The notes beneath the pieces were generated by a model. That model saw only the letters and a program-made list of their open reading frames with translations. It was not told the origin of the DNA and searched no databases. A program made the position numbers and the translations under genes. A stretch of DNA of 64,000 nt from a virus: the IMG/VR virus record IMGVR_UViG_3300032053_000016, positions 43,402 to 107,401 of that record; one strand, given 5' to 3'. Shown here in pieces: positions 12,414-57,773 of this stretch (its first letter is position 1; each line of letters begins with the position of its first letter).

Positions 12414-13112
12414 TCAGATGATGTTCATGTCGAGGACGCTGACGATCGCGATGTGTCGTTCGTCACCCAGATCAAGGCAAATCTCAACGTCGTTGGTCAA
12501 CCTGTTGGTCTCGTAGATCTTGAAACCACCAGCTAACGTGCCGTAATGTTGCAATCCTCCTGGAAAAGAAGGCCTGTACATAACGCAGGCCTCCAGAATG
12601 CACCTCACGTTAGGACCGACGTAGATCTTGTTGGGTGTAACCCCGTGTTGCTTGCGCAGTTCGTTGCTCGCATCGACGATGGTCTCGATGAGCGTCTCGT
12701 ACCATTCGCGAACCGTTCCGGTGAAGACGGGTCCCATTGAGAGACTCGAGGTGAGGTCGATAGGATTACCTGTGAGCTTATTGATGAACTTTCCAGGTGC
12801 GCGAGACCAGAACATCCGAAGTTGGTAGACCTCCTGCGAAGGAGGAGCAATGGATGCGATCTTCCCACAGATCATTCCCTCCATGTAAAAGAGATCAGCC
12901 TTCACATCCTCAGCCAGGAACTTCAACCGCACGGATTCAAGAACTTTTTCAGCGGCTTTCAACGAAGGCATCCTAGTGGCGTACCTGATCTCGTAGCTGT
13001 CTGCGCTTGGCATCTGAGCAGCATAGTCACAGATGTTTTCGAACGTGACGATGACCGCGTTGTCGACAAACTGATCTTCTTTGTCTTGTCTGTATCTGTC
13101 GATGAACTTCAC
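12414..13112 (-). CDS. protein with an isolated T4 gp23-like major-capsid segment in its C-terminal half
   Basis: WSRAPGKF..FTGTVREWYETLIETIVDASNELRKQHG..NKIYVGPNVRCILE..GTLAGGFKIY resembles the gp23-family A-domain region. Confidence 0.7.
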   Translation of the reverse strand: MKFIDRYRQDKEDQFVDNAVIVTFENICDYAAQMPSADSYEIRYATRMPSLKAAEKVLESVRLKFLAEDVKADLFYMEGMICGKIASIAPPSQEVYQLRMFWSRAPGKFINKLTGNPIDLTSSLSMGPVFTGTVREWYETLIETIVDASNELRKQHGVTPNKIYVGPNVRCILEACVMYRPSFPGGLQHYGTLAGGFKIYETNRLTNDVEICLDLGDERHIAIVSVLDMNII

Positions 13113-19172: not shown

Positions 19173-19351
19173 GACTTGTATCCTGAGCACTCGAGAGCTT
19201 CGTCTGTGAACGGCGCGTACGTCAATCCTTGATCGTCAAGTGTAACCAGCAAAACCCATTCGTTTTCGCGAAGCGTGGCGGGCATCTCGCATCGCGAGCA
19301 CACATGTGTGTTGGAGTTGCGTTGCTCCTTCTGTCTGAAGTCGTGCTTCAT
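19169..19351 (-). CDS. small hypothetical protein (CxxC)
   Basis: 60 aa, coupled to genes on both sides. Confidence 0.5.
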   Translation of the reverse strand: MKHDFRQKEQRNSNTHVCSRCEMPATLRENEWVLLVTLDDQGLTYAPFTDEALECSGYKS

Positions 19352-19785
19352 GGCTTGTACTTCTCGTTCCAGGCGTTGAGAACATGTCGATAGACCAACA
19401 TGTTCGGGCGGTACTGTGGGTTGCCGAAGATCGGCGCGTCGCTGCCATTGAGCACGAGGTGAAGCGCCGCGGCAACTGCGGCCGACCGACTCTTCCCAGC
19501 AGTGCAGTGAATCACAATCTGTTGAGCGTTGGGATGTTCCAAGACAAGATCAACGATGCGTTCTCCATCTCCAGGTTGAGCGAGCGGACAGCTTTCTTGA
19601 GTCTGTCCTGGGGCGTGCTGATCCAGATCCCAAAAGAAAAGGTTAAGCCTGCCAAGGGTATGCTCATTTGTCTTGATGTTAGCTGGCTCTTCACCCGGGC
19701 AGTTGATGGAGACAATGATGTGCGGGACGTCTGATAGATCCATCGCCTCGATGAGGGGACGACTACAGACTTGGATGTCGATCAT
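19348..19785 (-). CDS. protein tyrosine phosphatase-like protein
   Basis: IVIHCTAGKSRSAA CX5R motif; PN..VY. Confidence 0.85.
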   Translation of the reverse strand: MIDIQVCSRPLIEAMDLSDVPHIIVSINCPGEEPANIKTNEHTLGRLNLFFWDLDQHAPGQTQESCPLAQPGDGERIVDLVLEHPNAQQIVIHCTAGKSRSAAVAAALHLVLNGSDAPIFGNPQYRPNMLVYRHVLNAWNEKYKP

Positions 19786-19928
19786 GACATCCCCGAACTC
19801 TTACGCTTGAAGTAAAATTCATGCTCGTGTACACCAACAAGCTCCCAACCTTGAGCTCCAAGTTTGTTGAGAATCTCACATCTTAACGAGTAGACAGAGA
19901 TGCTCGCAACATGGTATTCCCACTTCAT
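19782..19928 (-). CDS. DUF4177-like small protein
   Basis: Manual translation MKWEY...LNKLGAQGWELVGV..FYFKR (48 aa), coupled on both sides. Confidence 0.7.
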   Translation of the reverse strand: MKWEYHVASISVYSLRCEILNKLGAQGWELVGVHEHEFYFKRKSSGMS

Positions 19929-20893
19929 GGCCCAACCATGTCGTGAATCCAGTTAAATGTTGTCTCTAGACCTTCGATGAGTTTCTTCTTTGGCCGCCAG
20001 CCGAGCACCTGGTCGATGAGCAGGTTGTCGCTGCAACGACCTCTGACGCCTTGAGGACCCTTGACATGCTTGACGGTGAGCTTCTTGCTCGAGATCTTGA
20101 TGACCATGTCAGCGAGTTGGTTGATCGTCACCATCTCGTCGGAGCCGATGTTCAACGACTCTGTGTAGTCAGAACGCATGAGGCGAAGCACGCCTTCGAC
20201 ACATTCATCGACGTGGAGGAAGCTGCGAGTCTGCTTGCCGTCTCCCCACACCTCGATCTCGCCGCCGTCCTTCGCTTGCGCGACCTTGCGACACATGGCA
20301 GCGGGAGCCTTCTCACGACCGCCGTCGTACGTGCCGAACTCGCCGAAGATGTTGTGGAACCTGGCGATGCGTACGTCGACACCCTTGTTGCGTTGGTACG
20401 CCTTGTACAGACGCTCGCTGAACAGCTTCTCCCAGCCGTACTCGGAGTCCGGAGCGGCGGGGTAAGCGGAGGCCTCGGAGCACACCGGGTTGTTAGGATC
20501 AAGCTGGTTGCGCTCGGGGTAGATGCACGCCGAGGACGAGTAAAAGATCTTTGGCTTGACATTGAGAGCGGAGACTCCGTCGAGAACGTTCAAGTTGATG
20601 GTCGCCGAGTTGTGCATGATGTCAGCGTCGTTCGCGCCGGTGAACACGAATCCGGCCCCGCCCATGTCGGCCGCAAGAGAAAAAATCTCATCATGACCTC
20701 CTGCAACGATTGCGCGTGTGAAGTAGGGATCGCGAAGATCGTCGCGAATGAAAGTTTCACCTGGGCAGATTTCACGAAATTCTGGCTGCTTAAGGTCAAC
20801 AGAGGTTACATGATAACCCTCTTTGATAAGACGACGAACCAAATGTCCGCCTATGAACCCGCCTCCGCCTAAAACAAGTCCTCGTTTCTTCAT
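19925..20893 (-). CDS. NAD-dependent epimerase, GDP-mannose 3,5-epimerase-like
   Basis: GGGGFIG, LAADMGG, YSSSACIYP, YGWEK, RFHNIFG, GGREKAPAAMCRK. Confidence 0.9.
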   Translation of the reverse strand: MKKRGLVLGGGGFIGGHLVRRLIKEGYHVTSVDLKQPEFREICPGETFIRDDLRDPYFTRAIVAGGHDEIFSLAADMGGAGFVFTGANDADIMHNSATINLNVLDGVSALNVKPKIFYSSSACIYPERNQLDPNNPVCSEASAYPAAPDSEYGWEKLFSERLYKAYQRNKGVDVRIARFHNIFGEFGTYDGGREKAPAAMCRKVAQAKDGGEIEVWGDGKQTRSFLHVDECVEGVLRLMRSDYTESLNIGSDEMVTINQLADMVIKISSKKLTVKHVKGPQGVRGRCSDNLLIDQVLGWRPKKKLIEGLETTFNWIHDMVGP

Positions 20894-21609
20894 TTTGACG
20901 ATCGTCCTGCCTTTCCGTATTTTAGCAGATTGCACACAGTGGCCGGGCTGGTGTTGTGTTTAACTGCGATGTCTTTCAACATTGTTCCGTTCGCACGATC
21001 AATGCGCATGCTTTCGATGATCTCAGCCGTCCATCGAGACCTTGCAGATGCAAGCTCACTCATGACTTGTCGAAAGGCGGTCGAACGCTTTTGTCCTAGA
21101 TTGGCAAGCCTTGTTTTCTCTACGGCTTCGCGTGACCGCGGGCCCATCTTCATACCGGTGTGAGCTTTTGCAATCTTTGCTTTTGTTTCATCAGGCATGG
21201 GCCCACGAATTTTCCCGATTCGACATTCACTGTTCTTGCGTCGATGCTCTTCTGATTGTGGGACTCCTTTGTTCCAAGAGATCTGGCCACGGCGAGCGAT
21301 GCTCATCCGAAGTCGTGAAACAGCCGAGCGTTTCAGTCCTGTTTGACCACATGAGCCGCCGGCGGTGTGGTTTGCTCCCCACCCGTGGAACGTGTTGTGC
21401 AAAGCGATGAGGTCGGCCTCGAAGTCGTAAGCGGCCTGCTCGTCCTTCGTCCCGAACACTTCCTCACGATGCCAACCGTGCTTGTCGCGAATGCTCTTCC
21501 AGTGAGCGTTGTCACGTTCGCGGGTGTGCACTCGCTTGTGCGTCCCCTTTCCTACGTAAAAGGGCCTCTCATCGTCAGTGCGGTCAACGTAGACAAACCA
21601 GACGCTCAC
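20890..21609 (-). CDS. GIY-YIG-like homing endonuclease with NUMOD3 repeats
   Basis: FVY..PFYVGKG..R; SEEHRRKNS, DETKAKIA; C-terminal HTH. Confidence 0.8.
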   Translation of the reverse strand: MSVWFVYVDRTDDERPFYVGKGTHKRVHTRERDNAHWKSIRDKHGWHREEVFGTKDEQAAYDFEADLIALHNTFHGWGANHTAGGSCGQTGLKRSAVSRLRMSIARRGQISWNKGVPQSEEHRRKNSECRIGKIRGPMPDETKAKIAKAHTGMKMGPRSREAVEKTRLANLGQKRSTAFRQVMSELASARSRWTAEIIESMRIDRANGTMLKDIAVKHNTSPATVCNLLKYGKAGRSSK

Positions 21610-55069: not shown

Positions 55070-55351
55070 GTGACCGACGAGTACGCGTTGCTGATGGCCT
55101 TGGTTGAGCATGCCGAGTCAGGCGAGACTGCCTACGAGCTGAGCGTCGACGTCGAGCACGTCGAGCAGACAGATGACATCTACCGCACGTGCTGCGCCGT
55201 GTACGTTGACGGGGAGCAAGCGTTCTTGATCGACATGAAAGAGCTGTCCACGTGGCTGATCTCGCCGAGCAGGCTGAGGCCTTTCGGCAACGTTTACATA
55301 CGAAACAGACATCGCAAGGATTTCAGGCTTGAAGACGAACCGATGAAGTAG
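55070..55351 (+). CDS. hypothetical protein
   Basis: 93 aa ORF. Confidence 0.55.
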   Translation: MTDEYALLMALVEHAESGETAYELSVDVEHVEQTDDIYRTCCAVYVDGEQAFLIDMKELSTWLISPSRLRPFGNVYIRNRHRKDFRLEDEPMK

Positions 55352-55695
55352 GTTCTTGACATGCGTAAGACCAAACTGCAGCAACTGCGGATGTCGAAAT
55401 GCGAGAACAAGCTGTTCTCCTGCAGCGTTCATAAAATCGCCGAGAAGGCTGACGAACTCAACGAGCTGTTCAAGGATGGATGGCTCACTGAGGAGACGCA
55501 GGTCGTCGGCGACACGTATCTTGTGCTCTTGAAGAAGGAGCATTCCGGACGCAAGGTGTTCTACGTCGACGTGGGCAACATGGCGCCGGAGGAGGTCACA
55601 GCGTACATGGATCGTGTGAAGGAGCTGACGTCTAACCCGGACAAGGATAGCGACTTCTACATTCCAGGCAGGTGATCGCGTAGGTTCTTGACATG
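55348..55695 (+). repeat. 16-bp direct repeat GTAGGTTCTTGACATG at 55348-55363 and 55680-55695
   Basis: Exact match; each copy ends on the ATG of consecutive genes. Confidence 0.85.
55361..55675 (+). CDS. small protein ending in a T4 gp20-like portal clip fragment
   Basis: RKVFYVDVGNMAPEEVTAYMDRVK..DFYIPGR matches the portal motif RRVFYxDxGNxP...DYxxPxR. Confidence 0.7.
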   Translation: MRKTKLQQLRMSKCENKLFSCSVHKIAEKADELNELFKDGWLTEETQVVGDTYLVLLKKEHSGRKVFYVDVGNMAPEEVTAYMDRVKELTSNPDKDSDFYIPGR

Positions 55696-55974
55696 ACGGA
55701 CGCTATGACCATGCTGCTCAACCTGATCACCCTCGCTGAATCCGACCCGACAGCGATCAAGCTTGAGGTGAGCCGTACGTACTACGATCCAGAGGACTTC
55801 ACGCCACGTAAGACGGTGAGGGTTGACGGCTCTCAGGTGTGCGTCGTGGAGCTTGCAGACGTGATGGAGGCGTCGAAGGACTGGCCCGCTCTGCGACACG
55901 AGACGCTAGAGAAGTACATGCCAACGTTGAAGCCGGGGATGATCCCGGTGGGGGAGCCGGTCGAGGACTCGTGA
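55693..55974 (+). CDS. hypothetical protein
   Basis: 93 aa ORF. Confidence 0.55.
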   Translation: MTDAMTMLLNLITLAESDPTAIKLEVSRTYYDPEDFTPRKTVRVDGSQVCVVELADVMEASKDWPALRHETLEKYMPTLKPGMIPVGEPVEDS

Positions 55975-56223
55975 TCGTCTACCTGATCACGTGCACCGTC
56001 AACGGGAAGGAGTACGTGGGCGTCACGTGGTCTCAATCGACACCCTGTGCACGTTTACGAGAACGATGAGCATGTCGCTACCTACCTCAGGCTAGAGTTC
56101 GTAGCTGAAGACATGAGAGTCAGTCTCAAAACTTTGCGCAACTGGTTGCGCTCTGGGAAGGATTTCGGTGCTCGTCGGTACGTACGAGACGAAAGTACTA
56201 TCAGCGCATTGCGCTCTAAGTAA
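55971..56223 (+). pseudogene. internally deleted GIY-YIG homing endonuclease remnant
   Basis: VIVYLITCTVNGKEYVGVT in one frame; NUMOD1-like PVHVY..VATY..AEDMRVSLKTLRNWL in another frame. Confidence 0.7.
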
Positions 56224-56999: not shown

Positions 57000-57773
57000 G
57001 TGGCGCTGATCTACCGGATCGACAGTAAGGAGACCGGCTTGACGTACGTCGGGCAGACTGTCTTGCCGCTTGACGAGCGGTGGAAGGCTCACGTCGCGTA
57101 CGCTTGGTGGGTCATTCGTCACATGCCGGAGAAGGACACCCACTTCGCGAGGGTGATCAGAAAGCACGGCGCGAAGACGTTCGTGCCGAGCGTTATCGAG
57201 GAGACGGCGGTCGAGTTGCTGAACGAGCGTGAGATCCACTGGGTCGCAGAGCTTGGGACCTTTGAGAACGGATACAACTCGACGAGGGGTGGCGGCGGCC
57301 GAAGCGGGTACGAGTGCTCCGAGGTGACGAGGGAGAAGTTGCGTCAGGTCCAGTTGGGTAGGAAACACACTGACGAGACGAAGGCGAAGATCTCGGCGAA
57401 GAAAAGCGGCGTGAAACAAGATCCAGCGATTGTTGAGAAACGAGCTTTCGCAAATCGAGCCGCCGGGCATAAGCGTTCTGATGAGGTCAAGCAAAAGATT
57501 CGTGCGTCGAACGTTGGACAGACGCGAACGCTTGAAATGAGAGCTAAGATGGCAGCATCGGCCAAGGGGAGAGTCCTGTCAGAATCGACAAAGAAGAAAC
57601 TCGGTAAGCGCGTTAGACAACTGACGAAGGAAGGCGTCCACGTTCAGACGTTTGATACGCTCACTGAAGCAGGCCAAGCGACAGGCTATTCGAAGGGCGC
57701 CGTATGTAACAACATCCGCGACCCGAAGCGTTTCCCGCTGAAGGACGTCATCTTCGAGCACGTGACTACGTAA
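57000..57773 (+). CDS. GIY-YIG homing endonuclease with NUMOD3/NUMOD1 motifs
   Basis: LIY..YVGQT..RW..H; LNERE; GYNSTRGG; HTDETKAKIS; FDTLTEAG. Confidence 0.88.
   Translation: MALIYRIDSKETGLTYVGQTVLPLDERWKAHVAYAWWVIRHMPEKDTHFARVIRKHGAKTFVPSVIEETAVELLNEREIHWVAELGTFENGYNSTRGGGGRSGYECSEVTREKLRQVQLGRKHTDETKAKISAKKSGVKQDPAIVEKRAFANRAAGHKRSDEVKQKIRASNVGQTRTLEMRAKMAASAKGRVLSESTKKKLGKRVRQLTKEGVHVQTFDTLTEAGQATGYSKGAVCNNIRDPKRFPLKDVIFEHVTT

Follow-up and report, generated by a model that had tools for sequence, protein, structure and literature searches.

Why would a virus maintain a protein of 104 residues in which a short piece of a phage portal is joined to a small, unrelated domain? The gene that raises this question lies in the window, a stretch of 64,000 nucleotides at the end of an IMG/VR virus contig of 107,401 bases. 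At the 29% completeness that CheckV estimates for the contig, the whole genome would measure several hundred kb. The initial annotation, made from the letters alone, had read the product as a mini-protein that displays the portal clip and had proposed that it serves as an immune decoy or a packaging regulator.

A conserved and selected small gene

The open reading frame list and its translation place the mini-protein gene (P0001) at 55361..55675 on the + strand, with an ATG start, 104 codons and a stop, and its sequence is as originally quoted. Conserved homologues were looked for and found. A word-indexed search of 5.8 billion proteins returned eight full-length homologues of 103–108 aa, close to the 104 aa of the query and 59–99% identical to it, and the 40 invariant columns of this close family are distributed across both halves of the protein. 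An exhaustive HMMER search, run on 1.84 billion cluster representatives, added further full-length relatives of 97–106 aa (P0010–P0016), and the distant relatives fall into ~8 clusters at 50% identity. The same exhaustive search found no long protein containing the whole P0001 unit. Four of its long hits (P0019, P0021, P0022 and P0027) are repeat proteins that carry the GW...YLFLLKK hairpin motif by chance, and a hit in L068 is spurious: it falls inside a tail protein, and PF07230 matches no portal on that record.

We found no match to P0011 in IMG/VR and no copy of the mini-protein in cultured phages, either by blastn of the region or by tblastn with P0001, P0018 and P0020. With P0023 as the query, tblastn against cultured phages returned only true portals, from Rak2-like, Atu_ph07-like and other jumbo phages. 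The ESM Atlas gave no lead for the mini-protein, with scores of 0.83 or less.

Compared with the 66%-identical G001 copy (L002:10001-10312), the gene shows 30, 21 and 53 differences at codon positions 1, 2 and 3, respectively, and a dN/dS of 0.14–0.16 at a dS of ~2, in a selection analysis that covered three DNA sequences; the family is under purifying selection by this measure. A 99%-identical gene with identical flanks is present in an independent metagenome contig (L062), and a 99%-identical copy of the protein is also encoded on a contig of 259,843 bases. An antisense reading frame (55118–55543) overlaps the gene, and both the homologues and the codon-position pattern support the + frame. 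Taken together, the homologues of constant length, the invariant columns, the low dN/dS and the independent L062 copy exclude a decaying gene, a misassembly and a chance reading frame. The mini-protein gene is a conserved, selected and free-standing gene and not a broken portal.

Homology of the C-terminal module to the portal clip

The initial annotation had recognized a portal signature in residues 64–104, and Pfam, PHROG, hhalign and BLASTP all place this resemblance beyond chance. The Pfam profile Portal_T4 (PF07230) aligns residues 64–90 with profile positions 206–232 of 433 at an E value of 2.8e-4 and with a score of 20.2 bits, under the gathering cut-off of 22.9. The profile is matched in the same place by 9 of 9 close family members and by 14 of 18 members of the wider family, with a best E value of 5.5e-6, and PHROG 213 ("portal protein") matches P0001 at E 4.6e-4. 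The same holds in an alignment against true portals, as proposed beforehand: with 14 of them, taken from viral contigs, hhalign pairs the mini-protein family at a probability of 98.4% and an E value of 7.6e-15, laying residues 60–104 on portal consensus positions 253–314. The alignment carries a gap of ~17 residues, which is the shortened loop that had been noticed earlier. In BLASTP, a stretch of 40 aa (residues 48–87) is 45% identical to the portal of G001, the nearest relative phage (E 5e-8). A profile search of PDB sequences sets residues 49–92 ungapped on T4 gp20 267–310, with query numbers equal to gp20 numbers minus 218. On the strength of these alignments, residues 60–104 (55538..55672, +) are homologous to the clip of T4-type portals. 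We rejected membership of the portal family itself, given the score below the cut-off, an alignment confined to residues 60–104 and the absence of the wing, both stem helices, the tunnel loop and the crown, from which the dodecameric channel is built.

To number the module on gp20, we combined the ungapped HMM alignment, a portal-to-gp20 alignment and the published domain limits, which place the clip at 279–358 and the stem at 255–278 and 359–377 (PMC4493910). The strand RKVFYVD (residues 64–70; 55550..55570, +) corresponds in the alignments, read against those limits, to gp20 R282–D288, the first clip strand. It is followed by the tip, where G72-N73-M74-A75-P76 (55574..55588, +) falls on G290-N291-M292-P293-A294 in the ungapped HMM alignment, and by a helix at residues 76–91 (55586..55633, +) that the AF2 model and the HMM alignment equate with clip helix α6. 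The C-terminal strand DFYIPGR (residues 98–104; 55652..55672, +) is paired with gp20 D333–R339 by hhalign and the portal-to-gp20 alignment. The clip signature is present with its strand R[RK]V[FW]YxDxG, its tip, helix α6 and the strand D[YF]xxPxR, and the identification of the segment as portal clip is borne out from the first strand to the return strand that ends at R339. The hairpin formed by gp20 311–327 (~17 residues) is absent, and the mini-protein terminates at R104, the equivalent of R339.

Conservation is uneven along the module. Residues K65–V71 are invariant in the close family, as are D98, I101 and R104; conservation lies in the strand and on the helix face that is buried. The tip region (72–81) is the most variable stretch of the module.

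A small scaffold domain

The N-terminal scaffold domain (residues 14–60; 55400..55540, +) is predicted by AF2 to adopt a β-α-β-β fold with a strand at 14–22, a helix at 23–38 and strands at 42–49 and 52–60; with an 18-sequence alignment, pLDDT is 76–92 across these residues. Beyond them, the AF2 monomer is unstructured at 61–75 (the clip strand has a pLDDT of ~50), helical at 76–91 and disordered at its end. An unstructured clip strand beside a folded helix and N-terminal domain would be consistent with pairing of that strand with a partner. Since a β-α-β-β domain is joined to the clip segment, the predicted architecture is that of a small scaffold domain with a displayed clip segment.

The first reading had called the N-terminal part DUF4177-like, a resemblance that may extend to the fold and that fails for the sequence. 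The best viral fold matches of the domain, in BFVD, include DUF4177/DUF1737 proteins, with TM scores of 0.80–0.85 by target and an rmsd of 1.0–1.2 Å over ~49 residues at weak E values of 0.004–0.2. In sequence searches, the Pfam profile DUF4177 (PF13783) matches 0 of 18 family members at E values up to 10, and hhalign pairs the domain with the 48-aa reading frame at 19782–19928 (−), its supposed counterpart, at a probability of 6.5%; on these two results we rejected DUF4177 membership by sequence. The contig holds no paralogue of the domain. PDB matches to the better AF2 model are limited to generic β-α-β-β arrangements with Z scores of 6.2 or less, and a Foldseek search of the PDB with the first, poor model ranked a phage portal (9nwm_A) first at E 0.049. 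The 48-aa reading frame has a sub-threshold DUF4177 match of its own (E 7.5e-5) and lies between a phosphatase-like gene (19348–19785; DSPc, E 5e-5) and a 336-aa reading frame (19925–20935) that, by eye, we take to be epimerase/dehydratase-like.

The true portals of related phages

We found no full T4-type portal, terminase or gp23 in the contig. The related 132.5-kb contig G001 carries the mini-protein gene at 59.2 kb, a T4-type large terminase (TerL) at 78.2 kb, a full portal at 80.4 kb and a gp23-type major capsid protein (MCP) at 88.9 kb, and in related contigs this TerL–portal–MCP head module stands ~20 kb downstream of the mini-protein gene. By synteny, the head module of the window phage sits just past the contig end.

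Over a 28-residue clip core, the mini-protein shares 11–15 positions with the portals of its own clade (G001, L071 and L072); with distant T4-like portals the number reaches as many as 17. It retains the general YMxRV consensus where the clade portals have YMEAAK. Because the module is no closer to the clade portals than to distant T4-like ones, we regard it as an old or a horizontally acquired copy of the clip, and we rejected a recent copy of the clade's own portal. The initial annotation had spoken of a phage recycling pieces of its own structural genes; derivation from a portal stands, and a recent self-copy does not. The equivalents of T4 R295 and K296 are acidic in the mini-protein (E77 and E78) and likewise in the clade portals.

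The portal genes of this group have a further feature at the clip. The G001 portal (L056:106-2685) is 860 aa long. Within its clip, a precise insertion of 173 residues separates RYAPL from SIEEDYW; portals 83% and 75% identical to that of G001 (L071:3001-5061 and L072:931-2991) lack the insertion. The insertion has Hint/intein-like features, namely a TxxH-like block and an end of the form ...LLRN followed by Ser, and an unusual first residue, Pro. Two proteins from a public library (P0030 and P0032) start with an intein C-terminal block (..HNFxADGxVxHNT) and continue into the portal stem and clip, an architecture which implies that inteins also occur directly upstream of the conserved portal region in other phages.

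A shuffled accessory island

The mini-protein gene lies within a run of closely packed genes on the + strand. It has large genes of 813, 1305 and 620 aa, none with a family match, to one side; to the other come a 238-aa gene, a gene for a GIY-YIG homing endonuclease, a 412-aa gene and a 789-aa gene with a LamG domain. The immediate neighbours are a 93-aa gene upstream (55070..55351, +) and a 93-aa gene downstream (55693..55974, +) that are paralogues by BLASTP (32% over 59 aa, E 7e-7), and homologues of the downstream copy occupy another relative position in L002 and L063. In the window, the order runs from the first 93-aa gene through the mini-protein gene, the paralogous 93-aa gene and a decayed endonuclease to the 238-aa gene. 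Both types of 93-aa paralogue precede the mini-protein and 238-aa genes in L063, and different small genes flank the mini-protein gene in L002, which makes three gene orders in all. Of the island's small genes, the mini-protein gene is the best conserved, at 66% identity against 34–59% for the others, and the large genes flanking the island are 77–91% identical.

Paralogous small genes of 73–108 aa, of a type with the pattern MTD..LL.L...AES...KLEVSRTYYDPEDF, are scattered around the mini-protein gene. They include both 93-aa genes of the window (55070–55351 and 55693–55974) and two genes of L002 (9305–9526 and 10607–10897), and they have no family match in Pfam or PHROGs.

A repeat search found a 16-nt direct repeat, GTAGGTTCTTGACATG, on either side of the mini-protein gene. 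The first copy (55348..55363, +) includes its start codon and the second (55680..55695, +) that of the gene at 55693–55974. A pattern scan of the 64-kb window found these two exact copies only, and both are also present in L062. That the repeat brackets the mini-protein gene suggests a recent rearrangement via the gene-start sequence. A similar sequence, TAGGTTTGCGAC, precedes a GTG start in L002.

The island also contains homing endonuclease genes. An intact GIY-YIG/NUMOD3 gene (57000–57773, +; PHROG 314, E 4e-32) is missing from the otherwise 99–100% identical L062, which has the 238-aa and 412-aa genes side by side; it is a presence/absence polymorphism of a mobile gene. A second GIY-YIG gene at ~55975–56223 (+) is decayed. 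Its N-terminal YLITCTVNGK is found in the reading frame at 55839–56069, and its C-terminal 58 residues, in the frame at 56047–56223, are 86% identical to the end of an intact 300-aa endonuclease of L002 (12663–13565).

We found no T4-type late promoter, and no sigma-70-like promoter or terminator near the mini-protein gene above shuffled expectation. Given the tight packing of the genes, the mini-protein gene is likely to be co-transcribed with its neighbours.

Other clip-module proteins and a capsid-derived gene

Small proteins built on the clip are not confined to this family. Contig G002 (L041 227–451) encodes a 74-aa protein with a clip module 1.1 kb upstream of its own 898-aa portal, and G003 (L057 1441–1734) encodes a 97-aa protein that matches Portal_T4 positions 154–225 at E 4.6e-9; the two are otherwise unrelated and share the motif RKVFYVD[VI]G. 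The G003 protein also retains the preceding stem-helix motif LLEDAAVIY, and its gene adjoins a 178-aa reading frame that, judged by eye, is presumably peroxiredoxin-like.

Many more small proteins with the strand-tip-helix module, either single or as a tandem pair, came out of the search of cluster representatives, among them P0017, P0018, P0020, P0023, P0025 and P0033. Several of these small clip-module proteins match the uncharacterised PHROG 23805 and PHROG 12349. P0010 scores an E value of 1.8e-3 against PHROG 23805, and two-module relatives score 1.8e-10 to 5.3e-7; P0001 has an E value of 0.31 with PHROG 23805 and of 0.091 with PHROG 12349. Since the module recurs, once or twice, in small proteins of unrelated context, the pattern points to the strand-tip-helix module itself as the working unit.

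The window also holds a gene derived from a capsid protein, as had been claimed for position 12414. The reading frame at 12414–13112 (−) encodes 232 aa, of which residues 99–200 are 49% identical (E 7e-33) to the gp23-type MCP of G001. Its N-terminal ~98 residues are unrelated, and the Pfam profile Gp23 matches at no better than E 0.045. It is a capsid-derived partial gene.

Candidate functions of the mini-protein

Very probably, the mini-protein contains an exapted portal-clip module that is under selection, and most likely it mimics, as a free-standing protein, the outward-facing side of the clip. In such a mimic, the β-α-β-β domain (residues 14–60) would carry a 45-residue copy of the clip that lacks the inner hairpin, and the mini-protein would be a competitor of the assembled portal for whatever docks there. 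Its most likely partner would be the large terminase, and we tentatively predict that the mini-protein binds it. Binding might restrain the phage's own terminase for as long as proheads are not ready; alternatively, it might block that of a T4-like phage infecting the same cell. The clade does possess the partner machinery, as G001 has the mini-protein gene together with TerL, portal and MCP.

We put the terminase first because its binding in T4 is the only experimental precedent for a free piece of the clip. In T4, gp20 residues N291, M292, R295 and K296 touch the terminase gp17, and mutating them abolishes packaging (PMC4493910). A 24-residue peptide of gp20 (288–311) binds gp17 and inhibits packaging in vitro, according to work cited in the same paper (PMC4493910), and residues 70–93 of the mini-protein, which comprise the tip and the helix, are the positional equivalent of the peptide as it is described there.

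Several observations weigh against the terminase as partner. The tip that would contact gp17 (72–81) is the most variable part of the module, and the conservation of the strand and the helix face could be purely structural. With E77 and E78 at the positions of R295 and K296, the contact chemistry of T4 is not directly transferable. A further point is location: the gene lies among homing endonucleases in a shuffled accessory island, outside the head module. Terminase binding also leaves the capsid-derived mini-gene of the same genome unexplained. The island position and the capsid-derived gene would fit a role in anti-immunity at least as well.

Such a role, argued by analogy, would be that of an immune decoy: the clip piece would fill the trigger site of a portal sensor of the Avs4, Avs11, SpbK or RAZR type without activating it. 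We consider this possible, if somewhat unlikely. The portal is a known trigger of Avs4, Avs11, SpbK and RAZR, and there is a precedent for a phage protein that occupies a trigger pocket and so inhibits the sensor: DSAD1 inhibits DSR2 by occupying its tail-tube-binding pocket (PMC10973363). The mini-protein gene lies in a variable accessory island and evolves faster than its structural neighbours, its exposed tip is hypervariable, and the same genome contains a gene derived from the capsid, the other main sensed protein. However, Avs sensors are described as reading folds over extended interfaces, for which a 45-residue piece may be too small, and we saw no matching of the tip to the clade's own portals in particular.

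The same surface of the clip also receives the neck. In T4, the C-terminal arm of the adaptor gp13 docks on α6, the clip strand and R339, inserting between two clip α6 helices and against the clip strand (PMC12929587). A module that bound the arm of a gp13-like adaptor could act as its chaperone or postpone its docking, and the mini-protein retains the helix, both strands and the terminal arginine (R104, equivalent to R339). Proteins with two tandem modules could, moreover, imitate the groove between adjacent clips. A housekeeping role in assembly is nevertheless ill-suited to a position in a shuffled accessory island, and we judge regulation of neck attachment or head completion improbable. 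Quite improbable, too, is that the mini-protein poisons or caps portal assembly, with its free clip strand pairing with portal monomers and hindering the dodecamer, for example that of a competitor. The invariant strand RKVFYVDV is near-universal in T4-like portals and would make for a broad inhibitor, and the clip strand is unstructured in the AF2 monomer, but the phage's own portal would be threatened as well.

That the gene is a non-functional by-product (a portal exon piece copied by endonuclease or intein traffic, a chance fusion, or a decayed or misassembled portal) is very unlikely indeed: the intact and decayed GIY-YIG endonucleases of the island (57000–57773 and ~55975–56223) and the inteins in or beside the same portal region (P0030, P0032 and the G001 portal) speak for it, and against it stand a constant length of ~104 aa at 59–99% identity, invariant residues in both halves, a dN/dS of 0.14 at saturated dS, three gene orders, independent assemblies and a full portal elsewhere in relatives. 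Given those inteins in or next to this part of the portal gene, endonuclease or intein traffic is a plausible original route by which the clip piece was copied.

Comparison with known systems

The portal clip is a hub of the head, met by the packaging motor, by the neck and by several immune sensors of bacteria. A natural copy of the clip would, if it proved to be a regulator or inhibitor, be the first to act at the portal–terminase interface, and if it proved to be a decoy, the first one against immunity that is itself a part of the trigger. The clip-derived and capsid-derived genes together point to a reusable trick in which a recognized surface is excised and displayed on a small scaffold. 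It is conceivable, though doubtful, that T4-headed jumbo phages keep "self-mimic" mini-genes, selected fragments of those surfaces of their virion proteins that are conserved, sensed or docked on, as competitive decoys against sensors or against the assembly of rivals, with the portal clip at 55361 and the capsid piece at 12414, each on a small unrelated scaffold, as candidate examples. Were this so, they would represent a general and undescribed class of accessory proteins built from pieces of their target's natural ligand. In limited literature searches, we found no description of natural portal-clip mini-proteins or of portal mimics or decoys.

The nearest known structure is the T4-type portal gp20 (PF07230; PDB 3JA7 and 6UZC), with which the mini-protein has a colinear clip and the motifs RKVFYVDVG, YMxRV and D[FY][FY]IPxR in common. 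In contrast to the portal, the mini-protein has only 45 of ~500–900 portal residues; it is without the wing, stem helix α7, tunnel loop and crown, and the hairpin 311–327 is deleted. An unrelated N-terminal domain is fused to its module, and its gene lies outside the head module. Residues 70–93 are equivalent to the gp20 peptide 288–311, and N291 and M292 are kept as N73 and M74. As cited, that peptide is a synthetic laboratory reagent that binds gp17, whereas the mini-protein is the product of a natural, selected gene, with acidic residues in place of R295 and K296.

Among small proteins, members of PHROG 23805 and PHROG 12349 and the relatives P0017, P0018, P0020, P0023, P0025 and P0033 share the strand-tip-helix module and are matched by PHROG 213 in the same region. 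Proteins of the PHROG 23805/12349 type differ in their N-terminal contexts, and several have two tandem modules where the mini-protein has one. DUF4177/DUF1737 proteins have in common with it the predicted β-α-β-β fold and the motif LNxLxxxGW, but the mini-protein has no match to their HMMs and the Foldseek E values are weak.

The closest parallel in logic may be DSAD1 of SPβ-like phages, in which a small phage protein likewise replaces a virion protein at a binding site (PMC10973363). The two differ in origin: no homologues are known for the fold of DSAD1, which does not derive from the tail tube (PMC10973363), whereas the mini-protein carries a piece homologous to the very virion protein that it would mimic. 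We describe the mini-protein as a domain-level derivative of the portal that possibly acts in the manner of known trigger and ligand mimics.
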